59,102 bases of DNA from a virus (taxonomy: Duplodnaviria > Caudoviricetes), in IMG/VR virus record IMGVR_UViG_3300032284_001102, positions 1 to 59,102 of that record. One strand, written 5' to 3'. Positions 4,216 to 30,582 of this stretch are shown piece after piece; the stretch's first letter is position 1; every line of letters starts with the position of its first letter. Under the pieces are notes generated by a model. It was not told where the DNA came from. It saw nothing but the letters and a program-made list of their open reading frames with translations, and made no database searches. The position numbers and the translations under genes are program-made.

Positions 4216-4220
4216 AAAAA

Positions 4221-6646: not shown

Positions 6647-6653
6647 ATATTTT

Positions 6654-7742: not shown

Positions 7743-7748
7743 ATATTA

Positions 7749-7778
7749 AATATACTTAAAATTTTTCAAATTATCAAA
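7749..7778 (-). promoter_or_regulatory. Bacteroidota-type promoter TTTG-N19-GTATATT, 6 nt before the ATG
   Basis: Identical geometry at 34946, 56779 and 58174. Confidence 0.65.
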
Positions 7779-7813
7779 TAAATATTTTTGTTTTTTTGAT
7801 ACAACTATGTTTT

Positions 7814-8557: not shown

Positions 8558-8561
8558 GGTA

Positions 8562-12731: not shown

Positions 12732-12732
12732 A

Positions 12733-13704: not shown

Positions 13705-14468
13705 TAAAAGTAAATATTTTTTTCTATATAAAATTGAGGATAGTTTCCACTAAAACTTATATCCCATACTTTGTATCTATTGTAATGGTTAAAATCACAA
13801 AAGAATGCAAAATATTTTCTTAATGGAAAATCATAATTTAATTTTCTTAAATTATTAAAAACTATATGACTATATTTTTCTTCATAATTATCAACTATAT
13901 CGTATACTTCTTCTATTTTTATATTTTTATTTAAAATAAAACACATATTATATTCAAATTCACCAATTGCTCTATGTTCTTCAGGCCCAATCATACTACC
14001 ACACCCAAACCAAAAAAATGCATCTTTATATGACATTTTTTCATAATTATCAAATTTAATAGTACCAACTAATTTTTTATTGACATAGCAATCAATTTTT
14101 CTATCTTCAAAATTTTCACAAATCATGGTAAAGTCATTAAATTCATTTACTTCTTTATTTGTTAATTGATAATATATTTGTTTTGGATATTTTTCAAATG
14201 TGCCATCTTCATTTGTTTTAATAACCCAATAAGTAAAAACAATATTTGCGTTTTCATATTTATCAATAAATGCACTAATACCAGAATGCATACCATTTCT
14301 AGCCATTAAAAATTGTTCGATTTCTTTTGGCATTAATTCTGGAAATATTTTTGCTGATAAAAATAATGTAAAGTCTTTGTCCATATGTTTGTCTATTCTT
14401 TCAGAAACGGAATATCTACTTTCAGGCAATATAAAAAATATATTATCTTTATTTACTCTTAAACTCAT
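13704..14468 (-). CDS. Stand-alone LamG/concanavalin-like domain protein
   Basis: FTL, G..SG, YVN, FG.G and D(F) pattern resembling the inserts in the adjacent GT7 proteins. Confidence 0.4.
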   Translation of the reverse strand: MSLRVNKDNIFFILPESRYSVSERIDKHMDKDFTLFLSAKIFPELMPKEIEQFLMARNGMHSGISAFIDKYENANIVFTYWVIKTNEDGTFEKYPKQIYYQLTNKEVNEFNDFTMICENFEDRKIDCYVNKKLVGTIKFDNYEKMSYKDAFFWFGCGSMIGPEEHRAIGEFEYNMCFILNKNIKIEEVYDIVDNYEEKYSHIVFNNLRKLNYDFPLRKYFAFFCDFNHYNRYKVWDISFSGNYPQFYIEKNIYF

Positions 14469-14471
14469 AAT

Positions 14472-15887
14472 TTAAACTTTAATTGTTTTACAAAAATGAT
14501 AAAATTCTTCTAATTCTGGAAAAGTTTTGCAAAAATCGGTTCCCCTTCTTAAATCGTGATTAGAAAAATATTGATAAAAACTATATCTATTTTTCATTTG
14601 TTGTGTAGAATCTTGTGGTGCTAACATCCAATCATAAATTCTTTTTACCTTTTGTACTTCAACATCACTATATCCAATATGTTCGGGACTAAATGATGGT
14701 GCTGCATAATAAGTGACTAATTTTGCTTGGTCTAAAATATATTTAGAATAATCAAATGGTAATACCTGTACAGTTTGATGTAATGGATATCTTAAATATG
14801 ATGAATCTAAAAATACTGCCGAACTCCAATATCTATCATTACTTGCATATGTATCTTTTAATGTATAAATGTTGTGTATTAGGTTTTCGTAATTAAACAC
14901 ACTTAATGCGTTATAAGTTGACATAAATGTAATAATAACTTTTGGACACGCAGTAAGAATCATATTTACATGGTCCCAGAATTTATTAAATTCTAATCCC
15001 GTTCTGATGTACTCTGCTTGCTCACCCCAAGTATCTACCGATGTAAAGATTACAATTTCTTTTACTCTGTTTTCGTCTTCAATTTTTTTAATTTTTTGAA
15101 TTAATTTTTCTACCAATGCAGTTGGAACTCCTAAATTAGAATTGATTGCCAATTTTAATTCTCTATTTGGATTGTCCTGTGCTAAAATAAAATCTAATAC
15201 ACCCCATGTATCTTTTGATAATAATGGTTCACCTCCAGTAATTCTAAATGTATGCAAATCTCTATATAAATCTGGCCACCATTTCCAAAATGCTTCTACA
15301 TACGGGTTATGGTCTTTATGTGGGATTGGCATTTTATCCTCTCTAACTAACCATTCAGGTGAGTTAAATCCATCTAATGTTGGATAACCACCATATTGTT
15401 CAACTTCTTCTACCCATGTTGAACTAAATGCAGGGCCGCAATATGAACATTTAAAGTTACAAGCGTTTGAAAATGCAACTTCCACATATTTTGGATTGTA
15501 ATCGTCTCTCCAATCTAGGTTTTTAATTTCTTCCATAAAAGGATAAGACCAACTTTCTCCAGATTTAAATATTCTATCACTAAATCTATCAGAGTTATCC
15601 TCTACACCCCAACAATAATCACATTCTTCAGGTCTTGCACCTTGTAACATTTCTTTTCTACGAAGTTTTTTGTACCTTGTATTATGAAGTGCTGAGGGGT
15701 TTCTAGTTATTTCTTGTTCTGAAATTTTGTGTGTACGAGGGTGGTGACATGAGTGATTGTGGCCACTTTGTAATTGTAAAGTTACTTGTGTCCATTTAGC
15801 TAAACACATTCCAGGACCTACTGCGTCTAATTCTTCTTTAGCTCTTAGGTATATCGGATTTTCCGAGTATGATTTTTCGTCTGCCAT
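14472..15887 (-). CDS. Radical SAM protein with N-terminal Twitch/SPASM-like Cys domain
   Basis: CNFKCSYC, TGGEPL; N-terminal CLAKW...SCHHP...CDYCW. Confidence 0.9.
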   Translation of the reverse strand: MADEKSYSENPIYLRAKEELDAVGPGMCLAKWTQVTLQLQSGHNHSCHHPRTHKISEQEITRNPSALHNTRYKKLRRKEMLQGARPEECDYCWGVEDNSDRFSDRIFKSGESWSYPFMEEIKNLDWRDDYNPKYVEVAFSNACNFKCSYCGPAFSSTWVEEVEQYGGYPTLDGFNSPEWLVREDKMPIPHKDHNPYVEAFWKWWPDLYRDLHTFRITGGEPLLSKDTWGVLDFILAQDNPNRELKLAINSNLGVPTALVEKLIQKIKKIEDENRVKEIVIFTSVDTWGEQAEYIRTGLEFNKFWDHVNMILTACPKVIITFMSTYNALSVFNYENLIHNIYTLKDTYASNDRYWSSAVFLDSSYLRYPLHQTVQVLPFDYSKYILDQAKLVTYYAAPSFSPEHIGYSDVEVQKVKRIYDWMLAPQDSTQQMKNRYSFYQYFSNHDLRRGTDFCKTFPELEEFYHFCKTIKV

Positions 15888-15891
15888 AATT

Positions 15892-17358
15892 TTATTTTAA
15901 ACAATGTACATTTATCATTTTGTGTTTTCCAAAAATAATTTGTGCACTAATGTATTTATATTTCATATTATTAATTCCGTCATTTTTATAGTCAATACTT
16001 CCTTGCTGCATTTCCATTATATATCTTCTTTCGTTTTTTGCAGTTGTTTCACCTTTTGCCCATTTGTCTATTCCACCCACATTTATTAAACCTTCTGTTT
16101 GATGTGGTAAACAAATAAATTTGCCATCTCTTCTATAAGGTAAAATTGTATGTGGTATTTGAATTTCTCTATCTTCAATTACTATATTATTTAATATTCC
16201 ATCATTTAATTCTGCCTGGTCTATAACTATTTTTTCATCATGTATATCTTCAAAATTATAATGAAAAATTAAACCCTCTGTTGAGTATTTTTTATGTACT
16301 TCTTGAATTTCATCTTTTGTTAATACTCTATTCCACATTTTAATATCTGCAACTTCACCTTTAAAAAATGAATTTGCTTCTTCTATTGAAACAGTTGGAG
16401 TATATCCAATATAAAATGGTTCATTACCATATCTCTTTAAACTAAATTCATATTCTAAAGGAGAATGTGTTCCTGTACCATTTCTTGCATCGTTTTCATT
16501 TCCATTTAAATAGAAATGCATTTTCTTTTCTAAATTATCAACAACCATTGTAACCCATGTCCATTCACCTTCATATCTTTTAAACCATTGGTAAACATGC
16601 TCTCTATGTGAATTCCATAACATACCTGTATACGCTCTACTATTATTAAAAGATAATCCCCAATCGTAACCTGGTTTTCTAAATATTGGATATTCTACAA
16701 ATTTTCTATTTTCATCACCTATCAACCATATTGGAACTTTTTCTATTTGCTGGTCTGCTTTTACTAAAACCGATATTGTATGTGAATTAGATATTGCAGC
16801 CCTCATTGATTCTTTTGTTGGTATTTTTATGTATGAATCTTTACCATTAAAAATTGCTGCTTTTTTTGTTTTTTCAAAATCAATTACTTTTCTTTCTACC
16901 ATTTCTTCTTTTACACATCTCCAAAATAAGTCATCATCTTCCATACCCCAATCCCAATACTCATTTGAATAACCATTGGTTTGTTCTACTTGCTCTTTTG
17001 TAAATAATACTGCTCCACCAAAGTATTCTTGATACTTTAATTGATACTCCGATTGTGAAATACGAACCGCAATGTGTTTTGGAGTTTCTTCTGGATAAGA
17101 ATAATCACAACTATCATCTTCAGGAATCATATCAATATCATGCCAAACTATATAATCACATCCATCATCAAATGCATGTTTTGCACCTATGTTTTTCATT
17201 AAACCTCTATTAAATAAATATTCATCTCTTTGATGTACTATGTATATAGTATGGTCTATTCCTTTCTTATCTAAAAAATTAGAAAGATGTGGAACAAAAA
17301 CATTCATATGTTCTTCTCTATTTCTATATGGGACGCAAACTCCTAACTTATGTGCCAT
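15892..17358 (-). CDS. GT7 (beta-1,4-galactosyltransferase-like) with LamG insert
   Basis: VPYRNR, FNRG, HDIDMIP, YFGG, NGYSN.YW.WG.EDDD, then FNGKDSYI...FKGEVAD...WNR, then C-terminal DGIN. Confidence 0.85.
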   Translation of the reverse strand: MAHKLGVCVPYRNREEHMNVFVPHLSNFLDKKGIDHTIYIVHQRDEYLFNRGLMKNIGAKHAFDDGCDYIVWHDIDMIPEDDSCDYSYPEETPKHIAVRISQSEYQLKYQEYFGGAVLFTKEQVEQTNGYSNEYWDWGMEDDDLFWRCVKEEMVERKVIDFEKTKKAAIFNGKDSYIKIPTKESMRAAISNSHTISVLVKADQQIEKVPIWLIGDENRKFVEYPIFRKPGYDWGLSFNNSRAYTGMLWNSHREHVYQWFKRYEGEWTWVTMVVDNLEKKMHFYLNGNENDARNGTGTHSPLEYEFSLKRYGNEPFYIGYTPTVSIEEANSFFKGEVADIKMWNRVLTKDEIQEVHKKYSTEGLIFHYNFEDIHDEKIVIDQAELNDGILNNIVIEDREIQIPHTILPYRRDGKFICLPHQTEGLINVGGIDKWAKGETTAKNERRYIMEMQQGSIDYKNDGINNMKYKYISAQIIFGKHKMINVHCLK

Positions 17359-18785
17359 TATAATAAAACTGAAAGGTGGTGGTGTTTTTTAATTGAAATA
17401 TCATTTAATATTTGATATAGACAGGTATTTAAACCATCTTTGTCCGTATCATATAATTTTGTTTTTATTTGATTCAAAAATCTCAATTGATTTATTCTTG
17501 TTTCTTTATGAACCCAATTTTTCTCATTCCAACTATTTGTTTTGTGAGATAATAATTTAAACAATGATGGTCTACGGAATGGAACTTGTAATTCTTTACC
17601 CAATGATTCTTTTGTTTTAATAAAATGAGATTCAACTATTTCACCATTATTATTATTAAAACTTAAATCAACTAATTCATTATTTCTATAAAATCTAAAA
17701 TCATAATATAATTTTAAATGTTCCGAAGATTTATATGCTCTAAAATTTTCTAATAATGAATTTTCTAAAATATTTTCAGATATAATTTTTACTTCTTTTG
17801 GTTTTAATTTTGTATCGTAAATTGCAAATTCTGAAATTAGGCCAAAAAAATAATTTGGTAAATCTCTATTTGGTTCACCTACACCTAAATAAAAATATTC
17901 TTTATCTGAATAATCTTTTACATTGTGTTTTAATTTTGTCATCCCTATAAATTCACCATCTTTATAAAAATCAAATTGATTTAATTCATAATCATATGTT
18001 ATACAAATTTGCGTAAAATGATTTGATAATATTTCAGAATTTATAGAATAACATTGGTCGGTTTCATCCCAAACATCAAATTTATATCTTCTAAATGAAT
18101 TAAAACTAACCGATGTATCGTATCCAGGAATTGAGAATACGGTATATTCATCATATTCATTATTTGGGTTTGATATAATATCATCTGGTTTAAATGTAAT
18201 CAATATACTAGTATCTTTTTCAAAATCTAATAAATCTTTTTTTGGAATTTTAATATAAGAATTGGTTCCATTGAATGATAGCCCGTATAAATTTTTTACA
18301 TCTGTTTTACCAATTATTTTAGTATCTAATGCAATTTTCTTTTCAGATGTTCTAAATAATAAGTCATCATCTTCAAATCCCCATCCCCAATATTGATTAG
18401 AATAACCATTTATTTTTTCAAAAGTTTCAACAGAGAACATTGTTACTCCACCAAAATAATCATCAAAAATTAAATTTTTAGACTTATCGTATTCCAATTC
18501 AAAATTAGTTGCTAAATGTAATGGTACTGCAGAATACGAATAATCCACTTCTAATGGTAACATATCTATATCATGAAATACTACATAGTCACATAGTAAC
18601 TCTTTTGCTTTGATAAATCCTATATTTAGTAACTTTCCTCTATTAAATGGTTTATCATCTATTTGCTCTACGATTATAAGTTCATAATCTATTTTATTTT
18701 CTTTAAAATAAAGCTTTATAGCATCTGTAAACTTTTTTAAATGAGTTTCTCTACTTCTATATGGAACAATAATTCCTAATTTCAT
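17358..18785 (-). CDS. GT7 (beta-1,4-galactosyltransferase-like) with LamG insert
   Basis: VPYRSR, FNRGKLLNIG, HDIDMLP, YWGWGFEDDD, LamG-like FNGTNSYI...G.ISE..IY, DGLN. Confidence 0.85.
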   Translation of the reverse strand: MKLGIIVPYRSRETHLKKFTDAIKLYFKENKIDYELIIVEQIDDKPFNRGKLLNIGFIKAKELLCDYVVFHDIDMLPLEVDYSYSAVPLHLATNFELEYDKSKNLIFDDYFGGVTMFSVETFEKINGYSNQYWGWGFEDDDLLFRTSEKKIALDTKIIGKTDVKNLYGLSFNGTNSYIKIPKKDLLDFEKDTSILITFKPDDIISNPNNEYDEYTVFSIPGYDTSVSFNSFRRYKFDVWDETDQCYSINSEILSNHFTQICITYDYELNQFDFYKDGEFIGMTKLKHNVKDYSDKEYFYLGVGEPNRDLPNYFFGLISEFAIYDTKLKPKEVKIISENILENSLLENFRAYKSSEHLKLYYDFRFYRNNELVDLSFNNNNGEIVESHFIKTKESLGKELQVPFRRPSLFKLLSHKTNSWNEKNWVHKETRINQLRFLNQIKTKLYDTDKDGLNTCLYQILNDISIKKHHHLSVLL

Positions 18786-18795
18786 TTAATTTATA

Positions 18796-19125
18796 TTAAA
18801 CTGTTTCTATATCTTTTTTTGGTCTTGGTTTTCTAACCGGTAATTCTGCAGCATCTGCATCAACTACCGATGTTGGTACTTTTGGTTGTTCTGGATTTAC
18901 ATTAGAAGTTCCACCTTTTGCCATATTATAATGTTCATATAAATAAAATGCAATTCTTTCACCCCATTCTTTTTTAGGTATTTCTTCAAACCAAATGGTC
19001 AATGCATCTAATGAATTTGCTATCTTTTCTAAGGCTTTTATTTTTCTAGTTTCTAATACAAGACTTTCAACATTTTGTTGTTCGGATGTCTCTGTTTCCG
19101 TTGTTTGTAACTTTGATTTTGCCAT
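18796..19125 (-). CDS. Hypothetical protein
   Basis: 109-aa ORF with operon-like spacing. Confidence 0.7.
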   Translation of the reverse strand: MAKSKLQTTETETSEQQNVESLVLETRKIKALEKIANSLDALTIWFEEIPKKEWGERIAFYLYEHYNMAKGGTSNVNPEQPKVPTSVVDADAAELPVRKPRPKKDIETV

Positions 19126-19127
19126 AA

Positions 19128-20582
19128 TTAAATTTTAATTTTATGTTTATATACTCCTGCTTTTATTTCTTCATTTACCAATTCTTTATAATTTATAGTA
19201 TTATATCCAAATAAATCCGTATCCAATACTCCACTTGTTATTTCATAAAAGAACATTTTTTCGTTTTCTGCAAAATTTTCGTCTTTTGTTTCATAAGTGT
19301 AATTATCTAATATAGTGAATTTTTTTGAATTTTCCAAAATTTCAAATTTTCCAATAGATTGTTCAGGCATATTAAACTCATGAGATAAATTTAATTCCTC
19401 TGAGAATATTTGCTGATGTATACCCGATGATACAATTCTTGCATTAGAAAATGATTTAGATGAATCAACATAAAATTCACCAAACTTTTTATCAAAGTCT
19501 ACATTTATTGTAGCTGGGAAATTTGTTTGTATTTGTCCTTCTATGTTTTTATATCCATCGGTATATAATTTTTGTATTTCCGAATTAGTAAGTGCATAAT
19601 CAAATAAACATAAATTTGACAATTTACCTTCAAATGAATCTTTGAATGCCATACTACCAATCCAAATATCTTTTCCTCTAAAATCTTTTAAAGTTTTACC
19701 TATTTCAGATGAACTTACCAATTTACCATCAACATATAAATCCATAACACGTTTGTCTAAATCAACTTTAAGTGCTAGATTTATCCATTTATTTGTATGA
19801 ATTTTGTGTGGATACCAAATTTGATATAAATCATCTACTTCATCCCAAATTTGTGCAACTATTGCTTCATTTCTCATTATAAATAAACCCATATCATAAC
19901 CTTGCTTTCCAATAAGAGTACCATCGGTTGATTGGTCATCGTTTATAAAAGCATTTAAAGAAATTGTAAATGAATCTTCAAATATATAATCCGTTGTTTT
20001 ATTTGCTTTAATCATTGCACAATTATTTTCATCGGATACAAATGGATATATTGTTTTCTTTATAGATTTGTTTACCTCTTTTACTTCCGTTAAAGCGTGG
20101 AATTTAGAAATATCTCTTGTAAAATATCTTTTTGTTAAAAGTAAACCATGTTTATCTAATCTATACAAAAAGTCAGGCCAATGGAATCCACCACCCCAAT
20201 AATCATTACTAAAACCATTTGCTTTAATAAATTGTTTTTTATCAATTTTAAATGCACCACCAATCCAATGTGGGTATGGTTTTAAATTTGGACAAAGATG
20301 TGTTGGGTGATAATTATAATCATAATTACACATTTCCATTTTTGGTAAAATATCAACATCTTGAAATACTATATAATCTGCCCAGTCTTCTACAATTTTA
20401 ACACCTGCATTACATAGTTTACCATAATTAAAAAAGGTATCAGCATCATCTTGTTCTATGAAATGTATTTGGTACTCTACTTTATCTTTTAAGAAATATT
20501 CCATATGACCAATGAAAGTATACATCTGGTCTAGTCTATTCGAAAATGGAACTATTATTGCTAATTTTTTATCAGTAATCAT
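19128..20582 (-). CDS. GT7-LamG paralogue with degenerate catalytic motif
   Basis: VPFSNR, FNYGKLCNAG, QDVDILP, but YWGGGFHWPD in place of WGxEDDD; LamG LYVDG. Confidence 0.75.
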   Translation of the reverse strand: MITDKKLAIIVPFSNRLDQMYTFIGHMEYFLKDKVEYQIHFIEQDDADTFFNYGKLCNAGVKIVEDWADYIVFQDVDILPKMEMCNYDYNYHPTHLCPNLKPYPHWIGGAFKIDKKQFIKANGFSNDYWGGGFHWPDFLYRLDKHGLLLTKRYFTRDISKFHALTEVKEVNKSIKKTIYPFVSDENNCAMIKANKTTDYIFEDSFTISLNAFINDDQSTDGTLIGKQGYDMGLFIMRNEAIVAQIWDEVDDLYQIWYPHKIHTNKWINLALKVDLDKRVMDLYVDGKLVSSSEIGKTLKDFRGKDIWIGSMAFKDSFEGKLSNLCLFDYALTNSEIQKLYTDGYKNIEGQIQTNFPATINVDFDKKFGEFYVDSSKSFSNARIVSSGIHQQIFSEELNLSHEFNMPEQSIGKFEILENSKKFTILDNYTYETKDENFAENEKMFFYEITSGVLDTDLFGYNTINYKELVNEEIKAGVYKHKIKI

Positions 20583-20597
20583 TTAGTAACTTATTGT

Positions 20598-21446
20598 TTA
20601 TATAGATATAATTTTTTTAAATAATTTATTCCATTGTTTGTAATTGTTTTTACCCACATATTCAAACACATATTCTTTATTTGTAACATCCATTTCAAAA
20701 TTATTACTTCTTAAAGCTTGATACATTTTTAAATATTCATCTGAAAATGAATAATCTTTTCTAATATCTGCAACTTGTTTAATTCTTTCTACACAAGTCG
20801 AATCCCATTTGAAATGATGAACCTGAACATTATAATCATCCACAGGTGCAATTAAAGGATGATTCCAACCTTGCCATCTCCAAGTCGTTTGTCCGTCTAT
20901 TTTTGCGTAGTGTTGACCAGGTGTTATTTCAATATACCCTTTCATTATACATACTTTATTAGGACACGCTCCACTCATTGGATATCTAAAAAATCCTGCA
21001 ACTGGAAATTGTTCAAATATATTTTCTTTTTTATTTATCTTTGGAAAATCACCGGTTTGTCCTATTCTATCAATAAATCCACCTCTTACTAACTCCCATC
21101 CATTTCTTTCACAATCTGATATAATTTCATTTAATGGTTTTGAATAAATATGCAATTCATCATCATCTGAAACTATCCACCAATCATCAGGAAATAACAT
21201 TTTAGTTTCGTTATATAATTCAGTAACATATTCCCAATTAAACTTTTCTTTTGTTACTCTTTGTACAATTTTAGCTTTATCAAATTCTTTTGTTATTTTT
21301 AAAACTTCATTATAAGTACTTGAACCTTCCCACTCATAAACTACAACATACATTTCGTCTACCAAATCTTTATAATGATTTAACATATGCCATAATGTAT
21401 CTGTTCGTGAACCTGTTACTGTAACTAATCTTATTTTTTTATTCAT
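20598..21446 (-). CDS. GT-A fold glycosyltransferase (GT2-like)
   Basis: L.HY, WWIVSDDDE, G.H, VHHFKW. Confidence 0.65.
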   Translation of the reverse strand: MNKKIRLVTVTGSRTDTLWHMLNHYKDLVDEMYVVVYEWEGSSTYNEVLKITKEFDKAKIVQRVTKEKFNWEYVTELYNETKMLFPDDWWIVSDDDELHIYSKPLNEIISDCERNGWELVRGGFIDRIGQTGDFPKINKKENIFEQFPVAGFFRYPMSGACPNKVCIMKGYIEITPGQHYAKIDGQTTWRWQGWNHPLIAPVDDYNVQVHHFKWDSTCVERIKQVADIRKDYSFSDEYLKMYQALRSNNFEMDVTNKEYVFEYVGKNNYKQWNKLFKKIISI

Positions 21447-21453
21447 TCTTTTT

Positions 21454-22212
21454 TTAAGCTTTTCTAGTAAGTAGTGTTATACCTGTACTTGTAACCTTTT
21501 TATCAAACATACGATAATTTTTTAAATTTACCAAATTCCACTCACTATTTTTTTCTAAATCTTTAATATATTTTGCAGGGCCATCAAAAGCAACAAAATC
21601 TTCTTTTGCATTTTCGGTTACAATAAATGTATCATGATAATTTTGGTCTATGTCGTGAATAGTAATAATTGCATTTTCAGACATAATTGTAGAATATAAT
21701 TCAAAATCTTTTTTAACTCCTTCGTATGAATGGTCTCCGTCAATGTGTAGATAATCTATTTTAATATCTTGTCTTACAAAATAATCATAGAATGTTTTTT
21801 CAGAAGTTTCTAAAATAACTTGTGGTTCAAAATGTTGTCTTAAAAAAGAATTTTCTTCTGTCCAGTCAGTAAATCCACCCACACCATTTGCCGCATCAAT
21901 TATAATAGTAGTTCCTATATCTCCCCACTCTGCAGAATTATTACCATCAAACATTCCCTGTTCCCATAAATCTTTTCTTGCTTGCGTCATCAGTCGTGGT
22001 ATGAATCCTCCTCCTGACCCAATACAGACGCATACCTTTGCTCTAATAAACTGAATAAAGGAATATATCAAAAGTCCATCTCCTAAGTGTAAATCGGTTG
22101 CACCATGTGTCCAACGATATTTAACAGGTTCTAAAACTTCTTCACCTTCTTCGTTTATTTTGTGATTATTTGCAAGGTATTTTTTTATAAGTACATCGTT
22201 AAGTAACTGCAT
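21454..22212 (-). CDS. Class I SAM-dependent methyltransferase (Methyltransf_24-like)
   Basis: IGSGGG, LHIDGDHSYEGVKKDF, IHD. Confidence 0.85.
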   Translation of the reverse strand: MQLLNDVLIKKYLANNHKINEEGEEVLEPVKYRWTHGATDLHLGDGLLIYSFIQFIRAKVCVCIGSGGGFIPRLMTQARKDLWEQGMFDGNNSAEWGDIGTTIIIDAANGVGGFTDWTEENSFLRQHFEPQVILETSEKTFYDYFVRQDIKIDYLHIDGDHSYEGVKKDFELYSTIMSENAIITIHDIDQNYHDTFIVTENAKEDFVAFDGPAKYIKDLEKNSEWNLVNLKNYRMFDKKVTSTGITLLTRKA

Positions 22213-23171
22213 ATTTCTTTAATCCATTTTTGTTTGTTAGTATATTTTTCTAGTCCGGCCTTCAACCTATCAAATTGTTTTTTATTTTTTTCAAAACCAT
22301 CTTCTAATATTTTTATGTATTGATAATGAAATTGTTTTTTATTGATTGCTCTATATCTGTATTTAATATCTTTCATCCAATTACCATCTAATATTGGAAG
22401 TTTACCATTATCGATTGCGTCAAATATTGCATATCCAAATGGTTCTTTAGTATATGCACCATGAAATATTTGGAAATTCTTTTCGAAAAACTTATTGTGA
22501 AAACGATAATCAAATTCTATAAATTGATGAACGGATGCATTTATTTTACTGCCTTCTAACATTCTTTTATAATCATATTTGTTTGAAAATACAAACGCAG
22601 GAATACCATCCAAATAATGTGCATTTTTTCTAGTTTCACATCTTGCAGCATATCCAATTTTATTATCAATTATTCCTACAAATGGTTTTTTATTTTTCCA
22701 TTCATAGTAATTTGGAATTGTAATTGTTTTTGGATAGTAAGTATGTATGGTATCCTTTTCATAACCAATCCAAATAATATTTTCAGAATTCTCTAATATA
22801 TCTTTTTGCCAATGCCAATCCAATCTTGTCATTACATTTTCATATTCATCATTTAATCCAACCATATCTGGAATAAAAGCATGGACAAATGTAAGATATG
22901 TTTTATGTAAATATTTTTGAATGATAGGATTTGGTTTATATGAATGATGTAAAAAAATAATCTTATCACACTCATTTAATATTTTATCAACTTCTTTTTC
23001 GTTTCCAAAAGTATAAATTGCATCAATTTCTCTAAATAAAGGTCTACCATCAATAACAATTTTATAATCTTCTTTTATCAATGGTAAAACATTTTCAATA
23101 AAATTGTTGCACCAAATATCAGCACCTCCGATGATATTTTTTCCGTAACCTGTTGTAATAAACACTATCAT
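22185..23171 (-). CDS. GT-B fold glycosyltransferase (GT4-like)
   Basis: GGA, IPN, R...RKN, EPFGYAIFDA...G..P. Confidence 0.75.
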   Translation of the reverse strand: MIVFITTGYGKNIIGGADIWCNNFIENVLPLIKEDYKIVIDGRPLFREIDAIYTFGNEKEVDKILNECDKIIFLHHSYKPNPIIQKYLHKTYLTFVHAFIPDMVGLNDEYENVMTRLDWHWQKDILENSENIIWIGYEKDTIHTYYPKTITIPNYYEWKNKKPFVGIIDNKIGYAARCETRKNAHYLDGIPAFVFSNKYDYKRMLEGSKINASVHQFIEFDYRFHNKFFEKNFQIFHGAYTKEPFGYAIFDAIDNGKLPILDGNWMKDIKYRYRAINKKQFHYQYIKILEDGFEKNKKQFDRLKAGLEKYTNKQKWIKEICSYLTMYL

Positions 23172-23216: not shown

Positions 23217-24065
23217 CTACATATTGTATTGTATTAATACTGATTTTTTTGCAGTTTTTTGAATTAATAGTGGAGTAAGATACTTAAAGTAATATTCTTC
23301 CTTAATCTCATTTTGCTTCGATTTAAGGAACTCATAGTATGGTTTGTATACTTTACCTAGCTCTTCATCAGATATGGGAGCCAGTGGTTCGTTTGCCCTA
23401 TTTTTACTACCTTCTTTATGGTTTTCAAAGTTATTAGGATTATCTATATCACCACTTTGTTTATGACCGGAAATGTGGGATGGGTCTGACCAATTAAAAC
23501 AATAAGATGGAATATAATTTTGATTCCATTCATCTAATTCACCTTTATCTCTTAAAACTGTATACCAACTTAATCCTTCATATCCCGTCTTATCTGAACG
23601 AAAACCTATCTCTTTTATCCTATCCATTTTAACTATGATACTTGCTTCCATTGTGTTTTGTGCAAATTCAATTCCATTTCCACTTGCAAATAAACTTCTT
23701 TGTGGTTTCCATGCATCTTTTCCAATTTCTTCTATACCTTCTACTGCCTGTTGAATATGATATGGTAAATAAATGTCATCATCGTCCGCCAACATAAAAT
23801 ATTCACCACTACAATAAGTTACTGCATCTCTACAAATATCTCCTCTGTTTGTATATGGTTGTTTAGTAATATAATCTATTGAATTATTTATAATCCTTAC
23901 ATCATCCCAAATTCCTAATCCACCTAATTCGATTGGATTTTCTGTATCTGTATTGAATATTATTAACTCTTTATTTTTATATGTTTGTGCTGCGTATTGT
24001 GCTAATATTCTTCTTACACAATAAAATCTTCTGTATGTAGTGCAAACAAAACTTACTTTTTTCAT
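23217..24065 (-). CDS. Glycosyltransferase family 2
   Basis: VSFVCTTYRR, QTY.N.ELII, ADDDDIYLP. Confidence 0.85.
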   Translation of the reverse strand: MKKVSFVCTTYRRFYCVRRILAQYAAQTYKNKELIIFNTDTENPIELGGLGIWDDVRIINNSIDYITKQPYTNRGDICRDAVTYCSGEYFMLADDDDIYLPYHIQQAVEGIEEIGKDAWKPQRSLFASGNGIEFAQNTMEASIIVKMDRIKEIGFRSDKTGYEGLSWYTVLRDKGELDEWNQNYIPSYCFNWSDPSHISGHKQSGDIDNPNNFENHKEGSKNRANEPLAPISDEELGKVYKPYYEFLKSKQNEIKEEYYFKYLTPLLIQKTAKKSVLIQYNM

Positions 24066-25006
24066 ATTAATACTGATTTTTTAGCTGTTTCACATATTTC
24101 TTGCCAATAATGCCAATTGGCTGTTTCGGTTTTGATAGTTAATTCTTTATCATATGGAAGTTCATTCATATATAATGCTTTATAAAATAGGCCATCATTA
24201 GGAGAAGTTACACCAGCATTATGATAAATGTTCATATCAAACCAATCCTTTTCTGCAGATGTTGCCCATGCAAATTCTAAATCTTTATGACAGATAGTTT
24301 GATTTCCTAATTTCCATCCGTTCCAAAGTACTGCCCACATATCTGCACACCATATTTGTAACTCGTGATAATCTGGTTTTAATTCTTTTTTTATATTATT
24401 TAATGCTGTAATTTGTGTAAAAAGATTTTCTGAATCCCTTTCTACTCTATCCCAAAAATCGTAATCTAAACCTTTCATTATATATTGAGCCCCAATAGAA
24501 TTTAATTCATTATCTTTTATTATTTGTTTGTCTATATCAATTATTTCACACATTTTATCCAATATATCTTCACCTTTTGATTTTATATAATCATAACCAA
24601 TATACCATCTACAATCTGACCCATACCAATTTTCATCTTCAATCATATCATTTGTTATCCATTTATTAATAGGTTTTGTAAATGCTATATCACAATCATG
24701 ATAAAATATTGTTTCATTTTTTAATTCTTGATTTTTAAAAAAATGTTGTTTTAAAATATTGGGCCTAATTGAAGATGTATATTTTTTTGTTAATCTATTG
24801 TCATCATAAAAAAAGAATCGTACAAAATTATAATTTTCGGCTAATTTTATCCAATCATCAGGTATTATATCAGTTTGTTTAGCACATAAAATATCTATAT
24901 TATTTGGATTAACTCCCATTTTTATAAAATTATTTATCATAACTTCAACTTGCCATGTATAATAAGTTATACATGGTTGTGCACAAATAAATCTTAAATT
25001 TTTCAT
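24062..25006 (-). CDS. Putative protein O-glycosyltransferase (GT95 HPAT/GT96 SGT1-like)
   Basis: YYTWQ, Y.SSIRP, DCD, AQY and WCADMWA in the order of the plant motifs YxxWQ, YxxxN(R/K)P, DxD and WxxEMY. Confidence 0.55.
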   Translation of the reverse strand: MKNLRFICAQPCITYYTWQVEVMINNFIKMGVNPNNIDILCAKQTDIIPDDWIKLAENYNFVRFFFYDDNRLTKKYTSSIRPNILKQHFFKNQELKNETIFYHDCDIAFTKPINKWITNDMIEDENWYGSDCRWYIGYDYIKSKGEDILDKMCEIIDIDKQIIKDNELNSIGAQYIMKGLDYDFWDRVERDSENLFTQITALNNIKKELKPDYHELQIWCADMWAVLWNGWKLGNQTICHKDLEFAWATSAEKDWFDMNIYHNAGVTSPNDGLFYKALYMNELPYDKELTIKTETANWHYWQEICETAKKSVLI

Positions 25007-25021
25007 AACAATTATTTAATT

Positions 25022-26866
25022 TTAACAAGGTAATCCTACCGCACCTGCTCCAGCAACATATACCGTTGTATTACCATAAATTGTTACAATACCAGGACCA
25101 CAAGATGTTGGTGTTACGGAAATTGTTGATGTTTGTGCGGTTGTATAATATCCTCCACTTGATGGCCCAGCTGCAGGAGCTGTCCAAAAATATAATGTAT
25201 CACCAGACCTTACACCTGTTATTGTTGGAGAAATGGCCGTAAATGTTGCAGATGTTAATGCTGGGGACATTTGATTTGCATTTAAAGGATTCGAATCATT
25301 AATAGTGTACCACACATACATTTGTCCTCTTTGTGAACCCAATCTTGCACCATTTATTGAAACGGAATATGTAGAAGGTGCACTTGTAGTTGTAGTGGTT
25401 GTAGTGGTTGTAGTATAAGACGCACATGTACCATATGATGTAATTTCTCCACTTGACACATAAAATACATTTGAAGCATTTGAATACCATCCATCGGCCA
25501 ATAATGTAGTAAGATAGTTATTACTATAAACGGATATAGTATTTCCCAAAGAACTCACATCAGGTGCAGTCCATATAATAACTCCAGTTGAACTTCCACA
25601 TGCATCTAATGCACTGGTTCCACTATACCATCCAGTCCATTTTTTACCAGTTGGAGGTGCAACCGTTGTTGTAGTGGTAGTTGTTGTTGTGGTTGCAACA
25701 CAATTAACTACATTGCCTGTTATAGCTTTACCATAGCCGGTAGTTGCTTGATAAATATATACAATGTATGTACCATTAGTTATACCCGTAAATGTATAAT
25801 CAGTACCATTACTAGGTATGGTTGTTGTTGCGTATGTAACAGGTGCACCTGAATTTGTACTATACCCTACTTTATATGGTGCACCTCCACCACCCGCAAT
25901 ATTATAAATACGAATTGTTCCTGTTCCTGGTGTTCCATCTCCTGCACAACCAACTTCTACCGTTGCCGTTATTGCTGGTAATGTGGTGGTAGTTGTAGTC
26001 GTAGTAGTCGTTGCGGTACAAGATACAATTGCTGAACTATATCCTTCGTTGCCAACACTATCTATTATTACAACATAATATGTCGCATTGTCTAATGGAA
26101 ATTGTGTCCACGAAGTTAAACCTGTTATATCAACCTGATGTGCTCTAGCATTTGTTTGTGCTGTTCCTAAAGTTGTACCATATCCTAACCACTTAAATGT
26201 ACCATTACCACCGGCAAATGTATTCGCAGTTATTCTACCTGTTCCTGGTACTCCTGTTCCCTCACAAGTAGCAATAACACTTAATGTAACAGGTGGCAAT
26301 GTTGTCGTAGTTGTGGTTGTAGTAGTGGTAGTTGTGGTTGTAGTTGTACAACTTACTGTTACTGCTACATTTTGAACAGAAGTGCCACCATCCGATGTTT
26401 TAACTGCAACATACCAAGTTCCATTTGCAATTCCAGTCCAATCATAAAAAGTTGCACCTGCACCCAATGTAATTCTACCACCCGCACCTCCATTTACTGC
26501 AGTAATAGCATTTGCTTGTGAATTTGCGTATGCAACATAAGAATAAACTCCATTACCACCTGAGAATGATGACCTCCAAGCTCCTGTTACACCCGAACAC
26601 GTAACTGCTCCATTTGTTACTACCAATGGTGCTAATGTAGTTGTAGTGGTCGTAGTTGTAGTTGTTGTTGTAGTAGTTGTAGTAGTAGTTGTTGTAGTTG
26701 TGCCAGAATATGAATAAAATTCACTTAATTTATCTGGTGCATCGAATTTTGTATCTCCCGTAGCTAATTTTGCTGCCGCAGAATATGCTCTCAACGAATT
26801 CGATGTAGAATTCAATTCAGTTTTTATTTGTGACATTTTAATTGCTCCAGATGCTTGTAGTGGCAT
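25022..26866 (-). CDS. Mucin-like putative virion fibre/decoration protein with five poly-Thr linkers
   Basis: Thr tracts of 10-22 residues separating Cys-flanked beta-rich domains; N-terminal MPLQASGAI..S.I..E seen in phage fibre-associated proteins; coupled to the tail fibre gene. Confidence 0.7.
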   Translation of the reverse strand: MPLQASGAIKMSQIKTELNSTSNSLRAYSAAAKLATGDTKFDAPDKLSEFYSYSGTTTTTTTTTTTTTTTTTTTTTTLAPLVVTNGAVTCSGVTGAWRSSFSGGNGVYSYVAYANSQANAITAVNGGAGGRITLGAGATFYDWTGIANGTWYVAVKTSDGGTSVQNVAVTVSCTTTTTTTTTTTTTTTTLPPVTLSVIATCEGTGVPGTGRITANTFAGGNGTFKWLGYGTTLGTAQTNARAHQVDITGLTSWTQFPLDNATYYVVIIDSVGNEGYSSAIVSCTATTTTTTTTTTLPAITATVEVGCAGDGTPGTGTIRIYNIAGGGGAPYKVGYSTNSGAPVTYATTTIPSNGTDYTFTGITNGTYIVYIYQATTGYGKAITGNVVNCVATTTTTTTTTTVAPPTGKKWTGWYSGTSALDACGSSTGVIIWTAPDVSSLGNTISVYSNNYLTTLLADGWYSNASNVFYVSSGEITSYGTCASYTTTTTTTTTTSAPSTYSVSINGARLGSQRGQMYVWYTINDSNPLNANQMSPALTSATFTAISPTITGVRSGDTLYFWTAPAAGPSSGGYYTTAQTSTISVTPTSCGPGIVTIYGNTTVYVAGAGAVGLPC

Positions 26867-29800
26867 TATTTATTTTTTAATTCGTCTACTTGTTTTTTCA
26901 ATTCTTTAATTGCTTCAACTAATAATGGAACTATTTTTTCGTATTGGATTGTTAGATAATTTTCACCACTTTTTGATTCACCCGTTTTAGTATCCATATC
27001 AAATGGTGCTGGTTTTATAATTTGTGGTAATACTGATTGAACTTCTTGTGCCAAAAATCCAACCTCTTCGTTATCATTTTTATTAGCTAATTCCTTTGCA
27101 GTTTCATTCCAATTAAAATATACACCATTTATTTTTGATAATTTTTCTAATGGATTATCTATTATTCTAATATTATTTTTTAATCGTTTATCAGAAGTGT
27201 TTGCAGTTACATCACCTGTAAATGTACCGTCTCCTCCAACTTGTAACATAGCGGTAACACCGGCTCTATCCATAATTACATAGTTTGCCGAATCTCTACC
27301 AACTTGAATACCACCTGCAATAATTTCTACAAATGAATTAGCTTTAGCTATGGTCACACTTAACGCAGGTTGTCTATATGAATTACCAGTTAAACCACTA
27401 CCATTATATTGTAATTTAAATCTTTGTTTTATTGTCCAAGTATTACCATTTCCGGTCATAGTTAATGATTTAGCTACACCATTTATAGCTGCCCAATTCG
27501 CAGTACTACCAAAAGTAACACCATCTTTATATTCACCAATGATGGTTTCGGTAATACCATTATCAACTACAATTTGTGACCAAACATCGATTGTAAACGC
27601 CGTTCCACTCATTACAACTGCCGAAACACCATTTGTTTCAGTCCAAGTTCCCGTAACATTATATGTTCCACCGGAAACAGTGGTTACTGTACCTAATGTT
27701 CTATCATATGTTCCTGCTGTATATCCACCTGCAGTATTATTTGAAGATAAACCACTAACAGTTGTAGGAGAACCAGCACTCAATGAGCTAAATGATGTAT
27801 TTTGGTTAATTAATACTCTAGGTACTGCACTTGTATCCGAAATTGTTATGGATTTAGCGGTAGAGTTCAATGAAATTGCGTTTGGAACATATATTGAAGA
27901 AGAATCAATATACCAACCACCAATTCTACCACTAGCCGCTGTTACATCACCTGCAAATGAACCACCTGCTGCAACTAATGTTCCTGTAAAGTCACCACCT
28001 GCTGCAGATAAATTTCCACTAAAAGTACCACCTGCTGCAGATAAATTTCCACTAAAAGTACCACCACCATTTATGTTTAAAGTACTTCCATTCCAAGTTA
28101 ATCCAGTACCTAATGAAAATATATTAGTAGAACCTGATGCAAAATAGAAAGGAGTATTTGTACTATTATATGTTCCTGTTCCTACATAAATTGCTTTATT
28201 TACACCATCCAATGTTATACCATTTTGTCCAACTTTTAATATGTTAGAAATATATCCGTTTTGGCCACCTATATTTGGAGAATAAATTGTTGTATTTCCA
28301 ATAAATGAACCACTATATGCTCCATTAGCTAATGTTTGTAATAAAGCAGTTGATTGGTTGTATGTATTATTAGACGCACTTATTGCTTGATTTGTTGCAA
28401 ATATCTGAGCTGCAGATGCTGATATTGATGCCGAAGCTGCAGCATTGGCCGAATATAATGAACTTGATACTACTGCATTTCCTGCAGCATTTGAACCCGA
28501 TACTACTGCATTTCCTGCAGCATTTGAACCCGATACTACCGCTCTTTGTGAATATAGTAAAGCATTTACATCAGTTGCAGCATTACCACCCGTAACAGTT
28601 ATTGAACCATTGACCGATAGATTGCCTGCACCATCAAATGTCAATTTATCTGCTAATGAAAATTTACCACTACTATCTAAATAAACATTTGTATTTGTAT
28701 TATTATATGCTCCTGAATATTCAGTATCACCGGATGGTATTGCACCACCTATAAATATTTTTCTTGGTGTTTGTCTTGCATCTAAATAAATTGAATTTGG
28801 AGATTGTCCTACTTTAAATAATGTACTAAAATATCCCAACTGACCACCAATAACCGGAGCATAAATTATATTACCACTTATAAATGAACCACTATAATTA
28901 CCATTAGCTAAACTTTGTACATATGTGAAAGATTGTGTTAATGAGTTATAAACACTTGTACTTATAGATGCACTTAATGCAGATTGTGATGATGAAACCG
29001 AACCACTTAGTGTATAAACAGAACTACTCGCATATCCAAATGAAGATGATAGAGACGAACTAATAGAACCTGTTAATAATTGAACTGATGTACTAACCGA
29101 ACCACTTAAATTAAATACTGAACCACTAACTATTCCAACAGAACTACTAGCCGATGAACTATATACAGTCATTGTTCCACTAATAGAAGATGATACTCTA
29201 TTTAAATCTGCTAATGATTGAGAAGTTGAAGAACTGATTAATAAGATAGTTTCACCTATGTTAGTATTTCCTCCATTAAATATAGCACTTTGTGTAACTG
29301 CTACTGGAACATAATTATTATTTACATCGTAAAATTCAAATTTAAAATTATAAGTTTCATTACCAATTACCGTTGGCATTGTAGTAACAAATGAAATTTC
29401 ATCTGGAGAAAATGCAGTATCTTGTGATAATTTTAAACTAATATTTCCCAAATGCCACTCTCCTTGCGATTGTGAAAAATACAAACTTGCAGATGGATAG
29501 TCCGTATCTATTTTAAATGGAATAACTATATTTGATAAATTTTTAGTAGGTGCGGTACCATTTAATGTTGCAATACTACTACCTGTTAAGCCCGAAACTA
29601 AATAAATTCCTAAATTACTTGATATAGATGATGAATAAAATGCATCTAAATTTAATTCATAAGTATTTGTACTTTTTATATCTAAAGAAGATGTATATGT
29701 AAATAAACCACTACCATTTAGTGCAATACCACTTTCAATTCTACTTGATGTAAGATATACATTTAACGAACCAGTATTCCAAAAATTAGTTAATGTTTCT

Positions 29801-30582
29801 GATGTAAATATACCAGTATTTCCTATTACACTTCCACTTAAATTATATGAAGTTAATAATTCTTTTGCTTCAACTAAAATATCTTGTATCAACGAATAAT
29901 CCGAAATATCACCTTCGGAAGTTCTAAATACTTTTACTCTTTTTACATCCCCAGCAAATGTTTCTAATTTTGAAAGTTTAATATTTGCAAATGATTGATT
30001 TATTCCTGAGTCTACTTTTGACCCACTTACTATTCTATAAATTGGTGCTAATATTTCAGTAATATTGGCAGTTGGTCTTTCATAAAATCTTATTTTAGTT
30101 GTATTAGCTAAAGAAGGATTTACATTTATAGTTTTTTGCCATTTAACATTATATTTTCCTTCCCAATCTAACGGAATTGGTGTAAGCATTCCATTTCCAT
30201 CTTCGTATTGGTTTACTTCACCTAATATTGTAATAGTACATTCACCAAAACTAGTATCAGGATAAACATATACGGAAACCACTTTAGAAACACCTTCATA
30301 ATATTCTGTTACAAATGGAACACCATTGAAAGATGATGAAATATAACCTTCACCTGGTTCATTATAAATTATTTTTCCATCTGATGATTTTATTTCAATT
30401 AAAATTTTTGTATCTGCAACCAATAAATCTGAACCTGCAATTAGAAATGCGTTTTTACCACCTGTAAAAGTATCAGGCAATTCTGTTATTTTAAAATATT
30501 TACTATTAGGGTCTGTATCATTTACTAATACAGAATATTTATCTAAGTTTTTAGCAAATAAAGTTTTTTGTATAACTGCCAT
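26866..30582 (-). CDS. Tail fibre protein with C-terminal intramolecular chaperone (peptidase S74)
   Basis: SDKRLKNNI...FNW...GFLAQEVQ...P...Y...LVEAIKEL; Ser/Gly-rich repeats. Confidence 0.85.
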   Translation of the reverse strand: MAVIQKTLFAKNLDKYSVLVNDTDPNSKYFKITELPDTFTGGKNAFLIAGSDLLVADTKILIEIKSSDGKIIYNEPGEGYISSSFNGVPFVTEYYEGVSKVVSVYVYPDTSFGECTITILGEVNQYEDGNGMLTPIPLDWEGKYNVKWQKTINVNPSLANTTKIRFYERPTANITEILAPIYRIVSGSKVDSGINQSFANIKLSKLETFAGDVKRVKVFRTSEGDISDYSLIQDILVEAKELLTSYNLSGSVIGNTGIFTSETLTNFWNTGSLNVYLTSSRIESGIALNGSGLFTYTSSLDIKSTNTYELNLDAFYSSSISSNLGIYLVSGLTGSSIATLNGTAPTKNLSNIVIPFKIDTDYPSASLYFSQSQGEWHLGNISLKLSQDTAFSPDEISFVTTMPTVIGNETYNFKFEFYDVNNNYVPVAVTQSAIFNGGNTNIGETILLISSSTSQSLADLNRVSSSISGTMTVYSSSASSSVGIVSGSVFNLSGSVSTSVQLLTGSISSSLSSSFGYASSSVYTLSGSVSSSQSALSASISTSVYNSLTQSFTYVQSLANGNYSGSFISGNIIYAPVIGGQLGYFSTLFKVGQSPNSIYLDARQTPRKIFIGGAIPSGDTEYSGAYNNTNTNVYLDSSGKFSLADKLTFDGAGNLSVNGSITVTGGNAATDVNALLYSQRAVVSGSNAAGNAVVSGSNAAGNAVVSSSLYSANAAASASISASAAQIFATNQAISASNNTYNQSTALLQTLANGAYSGSFIGNTTIYSPNIGGQNGYISNILKVGQNGITLDGVNKAIYVGTGTYNSTNTPFYFASGSTNIFSLGTGLTWNGSTLNINGGGTFSGNLSAAGGTFSGNLSAAGGDFTGTLVAAGGSFAGDVTAASGRIGGWYIDSSSIYVPNAISLNSTAKSITISDTSAVPRVLINQNTSFSSLSAGSPTTVSGLSSNNTAGGYTAGTYDRTLGTVTTVSGGTYNVTGTWTETNGVSAVVMSGTAFTIDVWSQIVVDNGITETIIGEYKDGVTFGSTANWAAINGVAKSLTMTGNGNTWTIKQRFKLQYNGSGLTGNSYRQPALSVTIAKANSFVEIIAGGIQVGRDSANYVIMDRAGVTAMLQVGGDGTFTGDVTANTSDKRLKNNIRIIDNPLEKLSKINGVYFNWNETAKELANKNDNEEVGFLAQEVQSVLPQIIKPAPFDMDTKTGESKSGENYLTIQYEKIVPLLVEAIKELKKQVDELKNK
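27994..28066. repeat. 33-nt tandem repeat in tail fibre (GTFSGNLSAAG)
   Basis: Two exact units starting at 27994 and 28027. Confidence 0.85.
28466..28539. repeat. 33-nt tandem repeat in tail fibre (AVVSGSNAAGN)
   Basis: Exact units at 28466 and 28499 plus a partial at 28532. Confidence 0.9.

Follow-up and report, generated by a model that had tools for sequence, protein, structure and literature searches.

A phage glycosyltransferase family that occurs together with poly-threonine runs: a candidate protein O-glycosylation system

The 59,102-nucleotide (nt) stretch of viral DNA analyzed in this work (IMG/VR record IMGVR_UViG_3300032284_001102, positions 1 to 59,102; hereafter the window) encodes on its minus strand a 614-amino acid (aa) protein with long threonine homopolymers (25022..26866; delimited by its open reading frame (ORF) and the count of its Thr runs) and, directly downstream, a 314-aa putative glycosyltransferase (GT), referred to below as the enzyme (24062..25006; assigned by its match to the PHROG family phrog_4417, its AlphaFold2 (AF2) fold and a DxD motif at residues 104-106). 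The two genes are localized between a tail fibre gene and a GT2-family glycosyltransferase gene, both on the same strand. The former (26866..30582, 1238 aa) was recognized by its similarity to phrog_5668 (E 9.4e-23) and other PHROG tail-fibre families and by a Peptidase_S74 chaperone domain at residues 1130-1187 (E 2.6e-14), and the latter (23217..24065) by the Pfam family Glycos_transf_2 (E 1.8e-07). Further downstream lies an island of sugar-biosynthesis and glycosyltransferase genes (465..23171, minus strand, Pfam matches). An earlier note on this DNA had described the poly-Thr gene as coupled to the tail fibre gene and followed after 15 nt by the next gene, and both features are present: the stop codon of the tail fibre gene overlaps the start codon of the poly-Thr gene (TAATG), the spacer between the poly-Thr stop codon and the ATG of the enzyme gene measures 15 nt, and the stop codon of the enzyme gene overlaps the start codon of the GT2 gene (ATGA).

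The five Thr homopolymers of up to 22 residues described previously were recovered exactly from the translation of the minus strand. The longest, with 22 Thr, occupies residues 56-77 (26636..26701); it is followed by a run of 16 (residues 174-189; 26300..26347) and three runs of 10 (residues 286-295, 25982..26011; residues 392-401, 25664..25693; and residues 485-494, 25385..25414), and Thr accounts for 23.6% of the whole protein. The codons of the 22-residue run are mixed (ACA 10, ACT 10, ACG 1, ACC 1), therefore it is not a pure trinucleotide repeat. No further ORF of at least 50 aa in the window encodes a Ser/Thr run longer than five residues. The segments between the runs are indeed Cys-flanked domains, as had been reported: each of the five segments that follow a Thr run contains exactly two Cys residues, the first close to its beginning and the second at its end or close to it, and the N-terminal 55 aa of the protein contain none.

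The poly-Thr protein found no match in Pfam or PHROG. In its AF2 model, the confident parts are the modules 78-173 and 190-285 only, both predicted as beta-sandwiches with a predicted local distance difference test (pLDDT) score of 83-94, and the Thr linkers are disordered (pLDDT below 50); Foldseek searches with this model led to strings of FN3 domains. The Cys-free N-terminal segment (26702..26866, minus strand), modelled as helices with low confidence, recurs in jackhmmer searches at or near the same position in relatives at five loci (L007, L033, L149, L098, and L100) and is 54% identical to the protein encoded behind the tail fibre gene of L098. It is presumably a docking piece.

The enzyme showed no Pfam match and aligned over its full length with phrog_4417, a family of unknown function (E 3.5e-63, residues 5-306 on profile positions 2-290 of 293). 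When sequences are clustered at 90% identity, at least 2,689 clusters match this family, all of them unnamed or labelled "hypothetical", and a library of representatives at 50% identity held 851 clusters matching the enzyme at E <= 0.001. A tblastn search of 50,697 phage records (E <= 1e-3) retrieved 77 of them, and the carriers comprise phages of lactococci, lactobacilli, enterococci, staphylococci, and clostridia, as well as abundant aquatic phages. Moreover, 9 of 18 long family representatives carry GT2, GT6, GT7C, GT25, Gly_transf_sug, radical SAM/SPASM or methyltransferase domains. All four motifs named in the earlier note, i.e., YYTWQ (residues 15-19), YTSSIRP (76-82), DCD (104-106), and WCADMWA (219-225), were located in the protein, and in an alignment of 48 sequences Y76, D106, and M223 are invariant, with W18, Q19, D104, W219, and W224 conserved in at least 90%.

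The AF2 model of the enzyme, built on the 48-row alignment, reached a pLDDT of 97.3. In this model, a beta-strand at residues 99-103 leads into D104-C-D106 (the DxD motif), and the catalytic domain begins at residue 4, without a membrane anchor. Comparison with solved GT8/GT24-type folds by VIA-align gave Z values of 13.3-14.9 over 212-247 aligned residues, at a root-mean-square deviation of 3.5-4.3; the best matches included LgtC (Z 14.9), the Skp1 alpha-galactosyltransferase (14.5), glycogenin (14.2), the UGGT catalytic domain (13.9), GlyE (13.4), and LARGE1. Foldseek returned 178 matches at E <= 0.001, with glycosyltransferases leading. In BFVD, the only close viral models were an uncultured phage protein and Orf49 of Lactobacillus phage LP65 (template modelling (TM) score 0.72). 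When solved structures were searched by sequence, the single-protein search was empty and the profile search gave only spurious matches to TAL-effector repeats. The prediction that the 314-aa protein is a glycosyltransferase is thus upheld by the GT-A fold seen with AF2, VIA-align and Foldseek, and on the strength of this model we regard it as a GT-A enzyme of an uncharacterized, widespread phage family.

A closer affiliation had been suggested in the earlier note, namely with the hydroxyproline O-arabinosyltransferases (HPAT; Pfam PF23452) of plants and algae, which constitute CAZy family GT95, and with the peptidyl-serine galactosyltransferase SGT1 of family GT96; the motifs YxxWQ, YxxxN(R/K)P, DxD, and WxxEMY were ascribed to these plant proteins in that note. 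This suggestion held in part. The structural comparison did identify a GT-A enzyme, and in the ESM Atlas, where predicted models stand on both sides (the enzyme being represented by the Atlas's own model) and matches come without alignment or E-value, it scored TM 0.78 to a mixed bacterial/phage cluster with HPAT on 44% of its members and TM 0.76 to a Chlorophyta cluster with HPAT on all (100%) of them. The Atlas feature search found HPAT on 10% of the members of the second-ranked set. In addition, sub-threshold HPAT matches appeared in 3 of 96 scans of family members: one among the 48 alignment members (E 0.23) and two among 48 further relatives (E 0.019 and 0.046; 13.5-14.8 bits), all colinear with the profile (residues 63-112 on positions 64-114; residues 217-267 on positions 189-242). 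On the other hand, these scores miss the curated Pfam cut-off of 23.9 bits, and the best solved folds are of GT8/GT24 type, although their Foldseek TM scores (0.4-0.5) lie far below those to the HPAT-labelled predicted models. A direct search with PF23452 in five phage records found nothing at the enzyme gene, and a homologue search started from P0254, the relative with the best sub-threshold match, retrieved no HPAT-labelled protein; the same profile gave blank results in five prokaryote genomes and in 401 genomes from the phylum of one Cyanobium metagenome-assembled genome, where the controls were blank too, hence these searches are uninformative. By predicted structure, HPAT appears to be the nearest named family, which makes it a structural lead short of established membership. 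The likeness to HPAT and SGT1 would be that of GT-A enzymes proposed to place the first sugar on low-complexity stretches rich in hydroxy-amino acids; the differences are that the phage enzyme has no membrane anchor and that its usual partner is poly-Thr and not a Hyp- or Ser-rich motif.

The association of the enzyme with poly-Thr genes was examined at 73 enzyme-anchored viral loci from IMG/VR with at least 1200 nt upstream, and the co-occurrence for which the earlier note had asked was strongly supported, in several unrelated phage lineages. With six or more consecutive Thr residues (T{6,}) as the criterion, the gene directly upstream of the enzyme on the same strand is a poly-Thr gene in 50 of the 73 loci, and a looser one (windows in which 10 of 10 residues are Ser or Thr) adds four more (54/73). 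Among 80 loci of sister phages, anchored on an SbcCD-like gene, the enzyme is present in four, and a poly-Thr ORF lies directly upstream in 4/4, whereas the 76 loci without the enzyme (1,103,334 bases) contain a single T{6,} ORF, located at a contig edge.

The same all-or-none behaviour was observed in a set of loci from lactococcal P335-like prophages, for which the bIL285 major tail protein served as the anchor: 13 carry both the enzyme and a poly-Thr tail on this protein, 59 carry neither, and none is discordant. Within this set, L192 is 92-93.5% identical to L189 and L180 and differs in the precise absence of the enzyme gene, i.e., it is a natural deletion, and its tail protein ends NSTTTAQP, with TTT only, where those of L189 and L180 have T10. 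Furthermore, in all six isolates examined (bIL285, Clostridium phage phiCTP1, MA9V-3, Planchet, Lactobacillus phage LpeD, and Staphylococcus hyicus phage PMBT8) poly-Thr is found on the major tail protein or on the product of an adjacent gene. In bIL285, a prophage of Lactococcus lactis IL1403, the enzyme gene is preceded by the gene of the major head protein, and KTTTTTTTTTRHD (T9) forms the C-terminus of the major tail protein; in phiCTP1 it directly follows the gene of a tail tube protein with two C-terminal Thr runs, in PMBT8 that of a tail tube/major tail protein with Thr runs at its end, and in Chryseobacterium phage MA9V-3 it comes after the genes of two proteins with long Thr/Ser tracts. 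Of 24 stand-alone copies of the enzyme in prokaryote genomes, 20 are preceded by a T{6,} ORF at a distance of no more than 4.5 kb. As a separate observation, in Bacillota prophage-like loci (L309, L313, L322, L323, L327, and L335) three Thr-run proteins are encoded within 3.5 kb upstream of the stand-alone enzyme, and their sizes (about 400, 105, and 210 aa) are those of a capsid protein, a small head/neck protein, and a tail tube protein. The tie between this enzyme family and poly-Thr runs appears about as strong as comparative genomics allows, and presence and absence in several unrelated lineages make an acceptor/enzyme pair, as had been proposed, the best reading.

The proteins that bear the runs are diverse. 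When the runs were masked, 56 upstream poly-Thr proteins fell into 19 groups by their N-termini, but into nine components when any similarity was allowed, because the modules between the runs are shared. They include a major tail protein (phrog_1407) and a virion structural protein (phrog_14478), and at two loci (L159 and L160) the tail fibre itself carries a Thr run. The window module 78-173 (26348-26635) is 71-74% identical to modules of the poly-Thr proteins of L053, L062, L063, and L064, the N-terminus of which is that of the major tail protein phrog_1407, the commonest N-terminus of this kind. It seems that unrelated proteins exchange the modules between Thr runs, perhaps through recombination within the DNA that codes for Thr. 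To judge from these sequences, it is the Thr run, and no particular protein, that travels with the enzyme.

Taken together, protein O-glycosylation of the Thr runs by this enzyme is in our view the most likely mechanism, and it is probably the correct one. The poly-Thr gene (25022-26866), the enzyme gene (24062-25006), and probably the GT2 gene (23217-24065) would constitute a mobile cassette inserted between the tail fibre gene and a lineage-conserved sugar island. The 614-aa product would be an accessory, fibre-like protein composed of the 55-aa docking piece and FN3-like modules on pure Thr linkers. Inside the infected cell, the soluble GT-A enzyme would transfer a sugar from a nucleotide sugar to the hydroxyl groups of the Thr runs, and the product of the overlapping GT2 gene, likely a second-step transferase, would add the next one. 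The glycosylated linkers would then form stiff, protease-resistant, mucin-like stalks on the particle. In this scheme, Thr as the acceptor, the enzyme as the initiator, the identity of the sugar, the location on the virion, and the purpose of a coat are what we infer. When the complex of the enzyme (48-row alignment) with residues 44-100 of the poly-Thr protein and Mn was predicted, the score was 0.01, the mark being 0.32, which speaks neither for nor against the proposal.

The alternative that survives best, although we consider it unlikely, is the one originally put forward, in which the pair initiates a glycan and the whole 23-kb island builds long, complex side chains on it, resulting in a bottle-brush structure. 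In its favour, the genes follow one another on a single strand, their junctions overlapping or tight, and the island encodes several more transferases and enzymes of sugar nucleotides; its Pfam matches comprise three epimerase/dehydratases, an RmlC-like protein, pieces of a thiamine pyrophosphate (TPP) enzyme, a radical SAM protein, three fusions of GT7 with LamG, and a methyltransferase. The placement of the pair at the head of a glycan island did not stand, however, when relatives were compared. In the closest ones (L097, L099, and L108) the island, including the homologue of 22185-23171, lies directly behind the tail fibre gene, with no poly-Thr gene, no enzyme gene, and no GT2 gene in between. 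Conversely, none of 24 island proteins was matched in 80 enzyme-anchored loci (tblastn, E <= 1e-8). Since the island is present without the pair and is unmatched at the enzyme loci, it has its own acceptor or purpose. GT2 homologues (58-73% identity) occur 0.9-3.3 kb downstream of the enzyme in 15 of the 80 loci and are absent from the 12 sister loci compared. The unit thus appears to be a small mobile cassette that landed beside an independent island, because the island is kept without the pair and the pair is found without island proteins; only the adjacent GT2 seems to travel along.

Some observations concern the sugar genes themselves. A Pfam glycosyltransferase is encoded within 3.5 kb downstream of the enzyme in 27 of the 73 loci, and such genes or those of other sugar enzymes in 35. 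The commonest downstream neighbour (37 of the 73 loci, e.g., L005:10933-11808), which is absent from the window, encodes a 291-aa protein of no Pfam family, for which the Atlas offers weak leads (0.85 to clusters labelled GT2 (13% of members), GT6 or WavE); given the lack of a Pfam match and the weakness of these leads, it was not counted as a transferase. Within the island, three paralogues (15892-17358, 17358-18785, and 19128-20582) combine N- and C-terminal GT7 (beta-1,4-galactosyltransferase-like) domains with a LamG/concanavalin-like lectin domain, and their homologues are kept in sister phages devoid of the poly-Thr pair. The phage may also make an unusual sugar, branched or carbamoylated, as hinted at by five window genes (5124-5654, 10908-11603, 11534-12079, 14472-15887, and 52893-54590) for separate transketolase-pyrimidine and E1/TPP-binding pieces, for an RmlC-like epimerase and a radical SAM protein, and for a NodU/Nol-like carbamoyltransferase.

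Considerably less probable is that the Thr runs are glycosylated, but that the enzyme extends a glycan begun by another enzyme of the host or phage, or that it targets Ser, hydroxyproline or Cys. In favour of an extender, GlyE, the Skp1 alpha-galactosyltransferase, and LARGE1, which are among its best solved structural matches, lengthen glycan chains linked to proteins. Nevertheless, in small prophages, bIL285 and phiCTP1 among them, the enzyme gene is the sole glycosyltransferase-like gene in the 12.8-kb structural regions shown, and the enzyme is constant across cassettes in which the neighbouring transferases vary. As regards another target residue, in L069 (152-2636) the gene of a 56%-identical phrog_4417 enzyme is flanked by that of an SPPPP-rich ("extensin-like") Cys-module protein, which takes the place of a poly-Thr one, and that of a 2-oxoglutarate (2OG)-Fe(II) oxygenase; in L071 (7616-11495) a poly-Thr protein, the enzyme, and the same oxygenase occur together. 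Since this oxygenase is of the prolyl-hydroxylase type, the arrangement in L069 and L071 is a further point of likeness to HPAT and recalls, by analogy, plant hydroxyproline glycosylation.

A related cassette was observed in L098 (8299-9922), where the slot behind the tail fibre gene holds a gene for a 179-aa protein composed of a docking piece of the window type, a (TP)n/Pro-rich linker, and a small Cys-rich end, followed by a gene for a 357-aa 2OG-Fe(II) oxygenase (PF13640, E 4.4e-18), to which the L069 oxygenase is 61% identical. This looks like an alternative combination of a linker with its modifying enzyme.

We see only a slight chance that the enzyme acts on a host envelope polysaccharide or teichoic acid, on phage DNA bases or on a glycan intermediate, the Thr runs being plain flexible spacers. 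According to passages of three papers, phage glycosyltransferases are usually assigned to the modification of DNA or of the host surface (PMC12619734, PMC12801897, PMC7968844), and the gene in the window adjoins the 23-kb sugar island. Such a target is difficult to reconcile with the gain and loss of the enzyme together with the runs in three independent lineages, down to a natural deletion of a single gene, with the position of the enzyme gene within the head and tail modules of small siphophages, where no other sugar gene lies close by, and with the lack of any relationship among the run-bearing proteins apart from the runs. A DNA-modifying transferase of the TAGT/JGT type was likewise considered and was ruled out as the principal explanation by the position of the gene in structural modules and its coupling to poly-Thr. 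It is equally improbable that the poly-Thr protein stays outside the particle, e.g., as a decoy or cell-surface coat made in the infected cell, an idea to which the lack of a PHROG or Pfam structural family would lend itself, since its gene is translationally coupled to that of the tail fibre, its modules have an FN3-like fold, and elsewhere the runs are carried by major tail proteins, a virion structural protein, and the tail fibre itself.

Several results weigh against O-glycosylation of the runs by this enzyme. The enzyme itself gave no HPAT match at E <= 0.1 and, as far as sequence profiles go, matches no curated protein-glycosyltransferase family, HPAT not being reached. No Thr-rich gene lies directly upstream of the enzyme in 19 of the 73 viral loci, and no T{6,} ORF within 4.5 kb upstream in 4 of the 24 stand-alone genomic copies. 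In L098, no phrog_4417 enzyme was found within the 14.4 kb covered, despite the same docking piece. The presumed place of the poly-Thr protein on the virion derives from gene position and fold alone. Bacteroidota chromosomes encode proteins of about 500-600 aa in which the enzyme domain is joined to a GT7C-like domain, and only one of 44 such loci has an adjacent T{6,} ORF, a scarcity that would also suit another target; hence a poly-Thr gene next door is not a universal companion of the family. Finally, the Fisher value for the split among the sister phages (3e-6) overstates independence, as the loci within sets are related, and for the same reason the counts given above are not independent events. 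It should be stressed that, despite this relatedness, the pattern recurs in separate lineages. Moreover, when contigs of five of the 19 loci were checked, in-frame poly-Thr ORFs were found elsewhere in four of them, all at least 90% complete, and the fifth contig is 44% complete.

The fused copies have surroundings of their own. Three of four loci examined (L265, L271, and L280) are bacteriocin-like or resemble loci of ribosomally synthesized and post-translationally modified peptides, with a C39-ABC exporter, HlyD, radical SAM, LanC-like, and thioredoxin-like proteins, and in L274, L292, and L306 small GG-leader peptides with Thr-rich, Cys-containing cores are encoded just upstream. These Bacteroidota loci may represent a new type of glycosylated exported peptide. 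Together with the oxygenase loci they fit a peptide-directed transferase, in a few cases.

A wider reading, which we offer tentatively and which may well fail in one part or another, is that poly-Thr constitutes a portable "glycosylate me" tag, written by a single family of HPAT-like peptidyl O-glycosyltransferases. Taken as a whole, it would mean that phages of very different hosts attach the tag to particle proteins of any kind, whether capsid-side, tail-tube or fibre proteins or accessory stalks, and exchange the modules that separate the tags; that Bacteroidota use the same catalytic domain, joined to a second transferase, for the glycosylation of exported GG-leader peptides; that some phages swap the tag for, or combine it with, a Pro-rich linker and a prolyl-hydroxylase-like oxygenase; and that phages would thereby have assembled a miniature of the chemistry of plant extensins and arabinogalactan-proteins.

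Searches of the full-text literature found no paper on the enzyme/poly-Thr pairing, the phrog_4417 family or phage poly-Thr tags. The closest known parallel is the virion glycosylation of mycobacteriophages, reportedly described by Freeman et al. in 2023 in Cell Host Microbe. There, in the Che8-type system, phage-encoded transferases reportedly modify the phage's own structural proteins, as is proposed here, and the transferase genes are reported to lie among or beside structural genes with a terminal acceptor, as in bIL285, phiCTP1, and PMBT8; this is a likeness of arrangement and not of homology. Passages of PMC12619734 place the mycobacteriophage glycans at the C-termini of capsid and tail-tube subunits, which resembles the C-terminal poly-Thr tails on major tail proteins found in this work. 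In print, sugar coats of phage particles are known from no more than a few mycobacteriophages, in which, according to the same passages, they protect the virion against antibodies. In contrast to that system, the enzyme family is apparently another one (none of the 77 records matched by tblastn at E <= 1e-3 comes from a Mycobacterium phage), the putative acceptor is a pure Thr homopolymer, which in the window forms internal linkers and not a tail, and the hosts are diverse, including lactic acid bacteria, staphylococci, and aquatic bacteria.

Among solved enzymes, LgtC, glycogenin, UGGT, GlyE, and the Skp1 alpha-galactosyltransferase (retaining GT-A enzymes of GT8/GT24 type) share with the phage enzyme the fold and the position of the DxD motif, and several of them act on proteins or protein-linked glycans; GlyE, for instance, belongs to the pneumococcal serine-rich-repeat protein pathway. 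The sequence identity to this group is, however, only 9-12%, with no Pfam or PDB sequence match. As to the putative acceptor, phage T4 displays Ig-like/FN3-like decoration domains on its particle in the form of Hoc. The poly-Thr protein would resemble Hoc in consisting of small beta-sandwich modules in a row, presumably on the outside of the particle, and differs from it by the long Thr homopolymers between the modules and the dedicated transferase encoded next door.

As regards the source of the window, nearly all its long ORFs are on the minus strand, its G+C content is 0.24-0.36, and PHROG profiles also identified baseplate, tail-fibre, and primase genes and a fused SbcD-SbcC-like gene. The product of the latter (30849-34001, 1050 aa) joins an SbcD-like part (residues 6-337, phrog_100) to an SbcC-like part (residues 322-1049, phrog_77), and the fusion is kept at 68-96% identity across 80 viral contigs. 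No DNA-level match to the window was found among the 50,697 phage records, the closest isolate according to the SbcCD-like protein is Microcystis phage Mel-JY01 (41.7% identity), and related IMG/VR contigs reach 245 kb; the window is therefore a fragment of the genome of a large uncultured aquatic phage, which we propose to be myovirus-like with a genome of about 200-250 kb.

If the enzyme family does glycosylate poly-Thr runs, O-glycosylation of virions would be widespread among phages. This would bear on phage stability, adsorption, and adherence to mucus, on immune recognition in phage therapy, and on the biology of dairy phages, and it would provide glyco-engineers with a short, genetically encodable tag and its soluble cognate enzyme.

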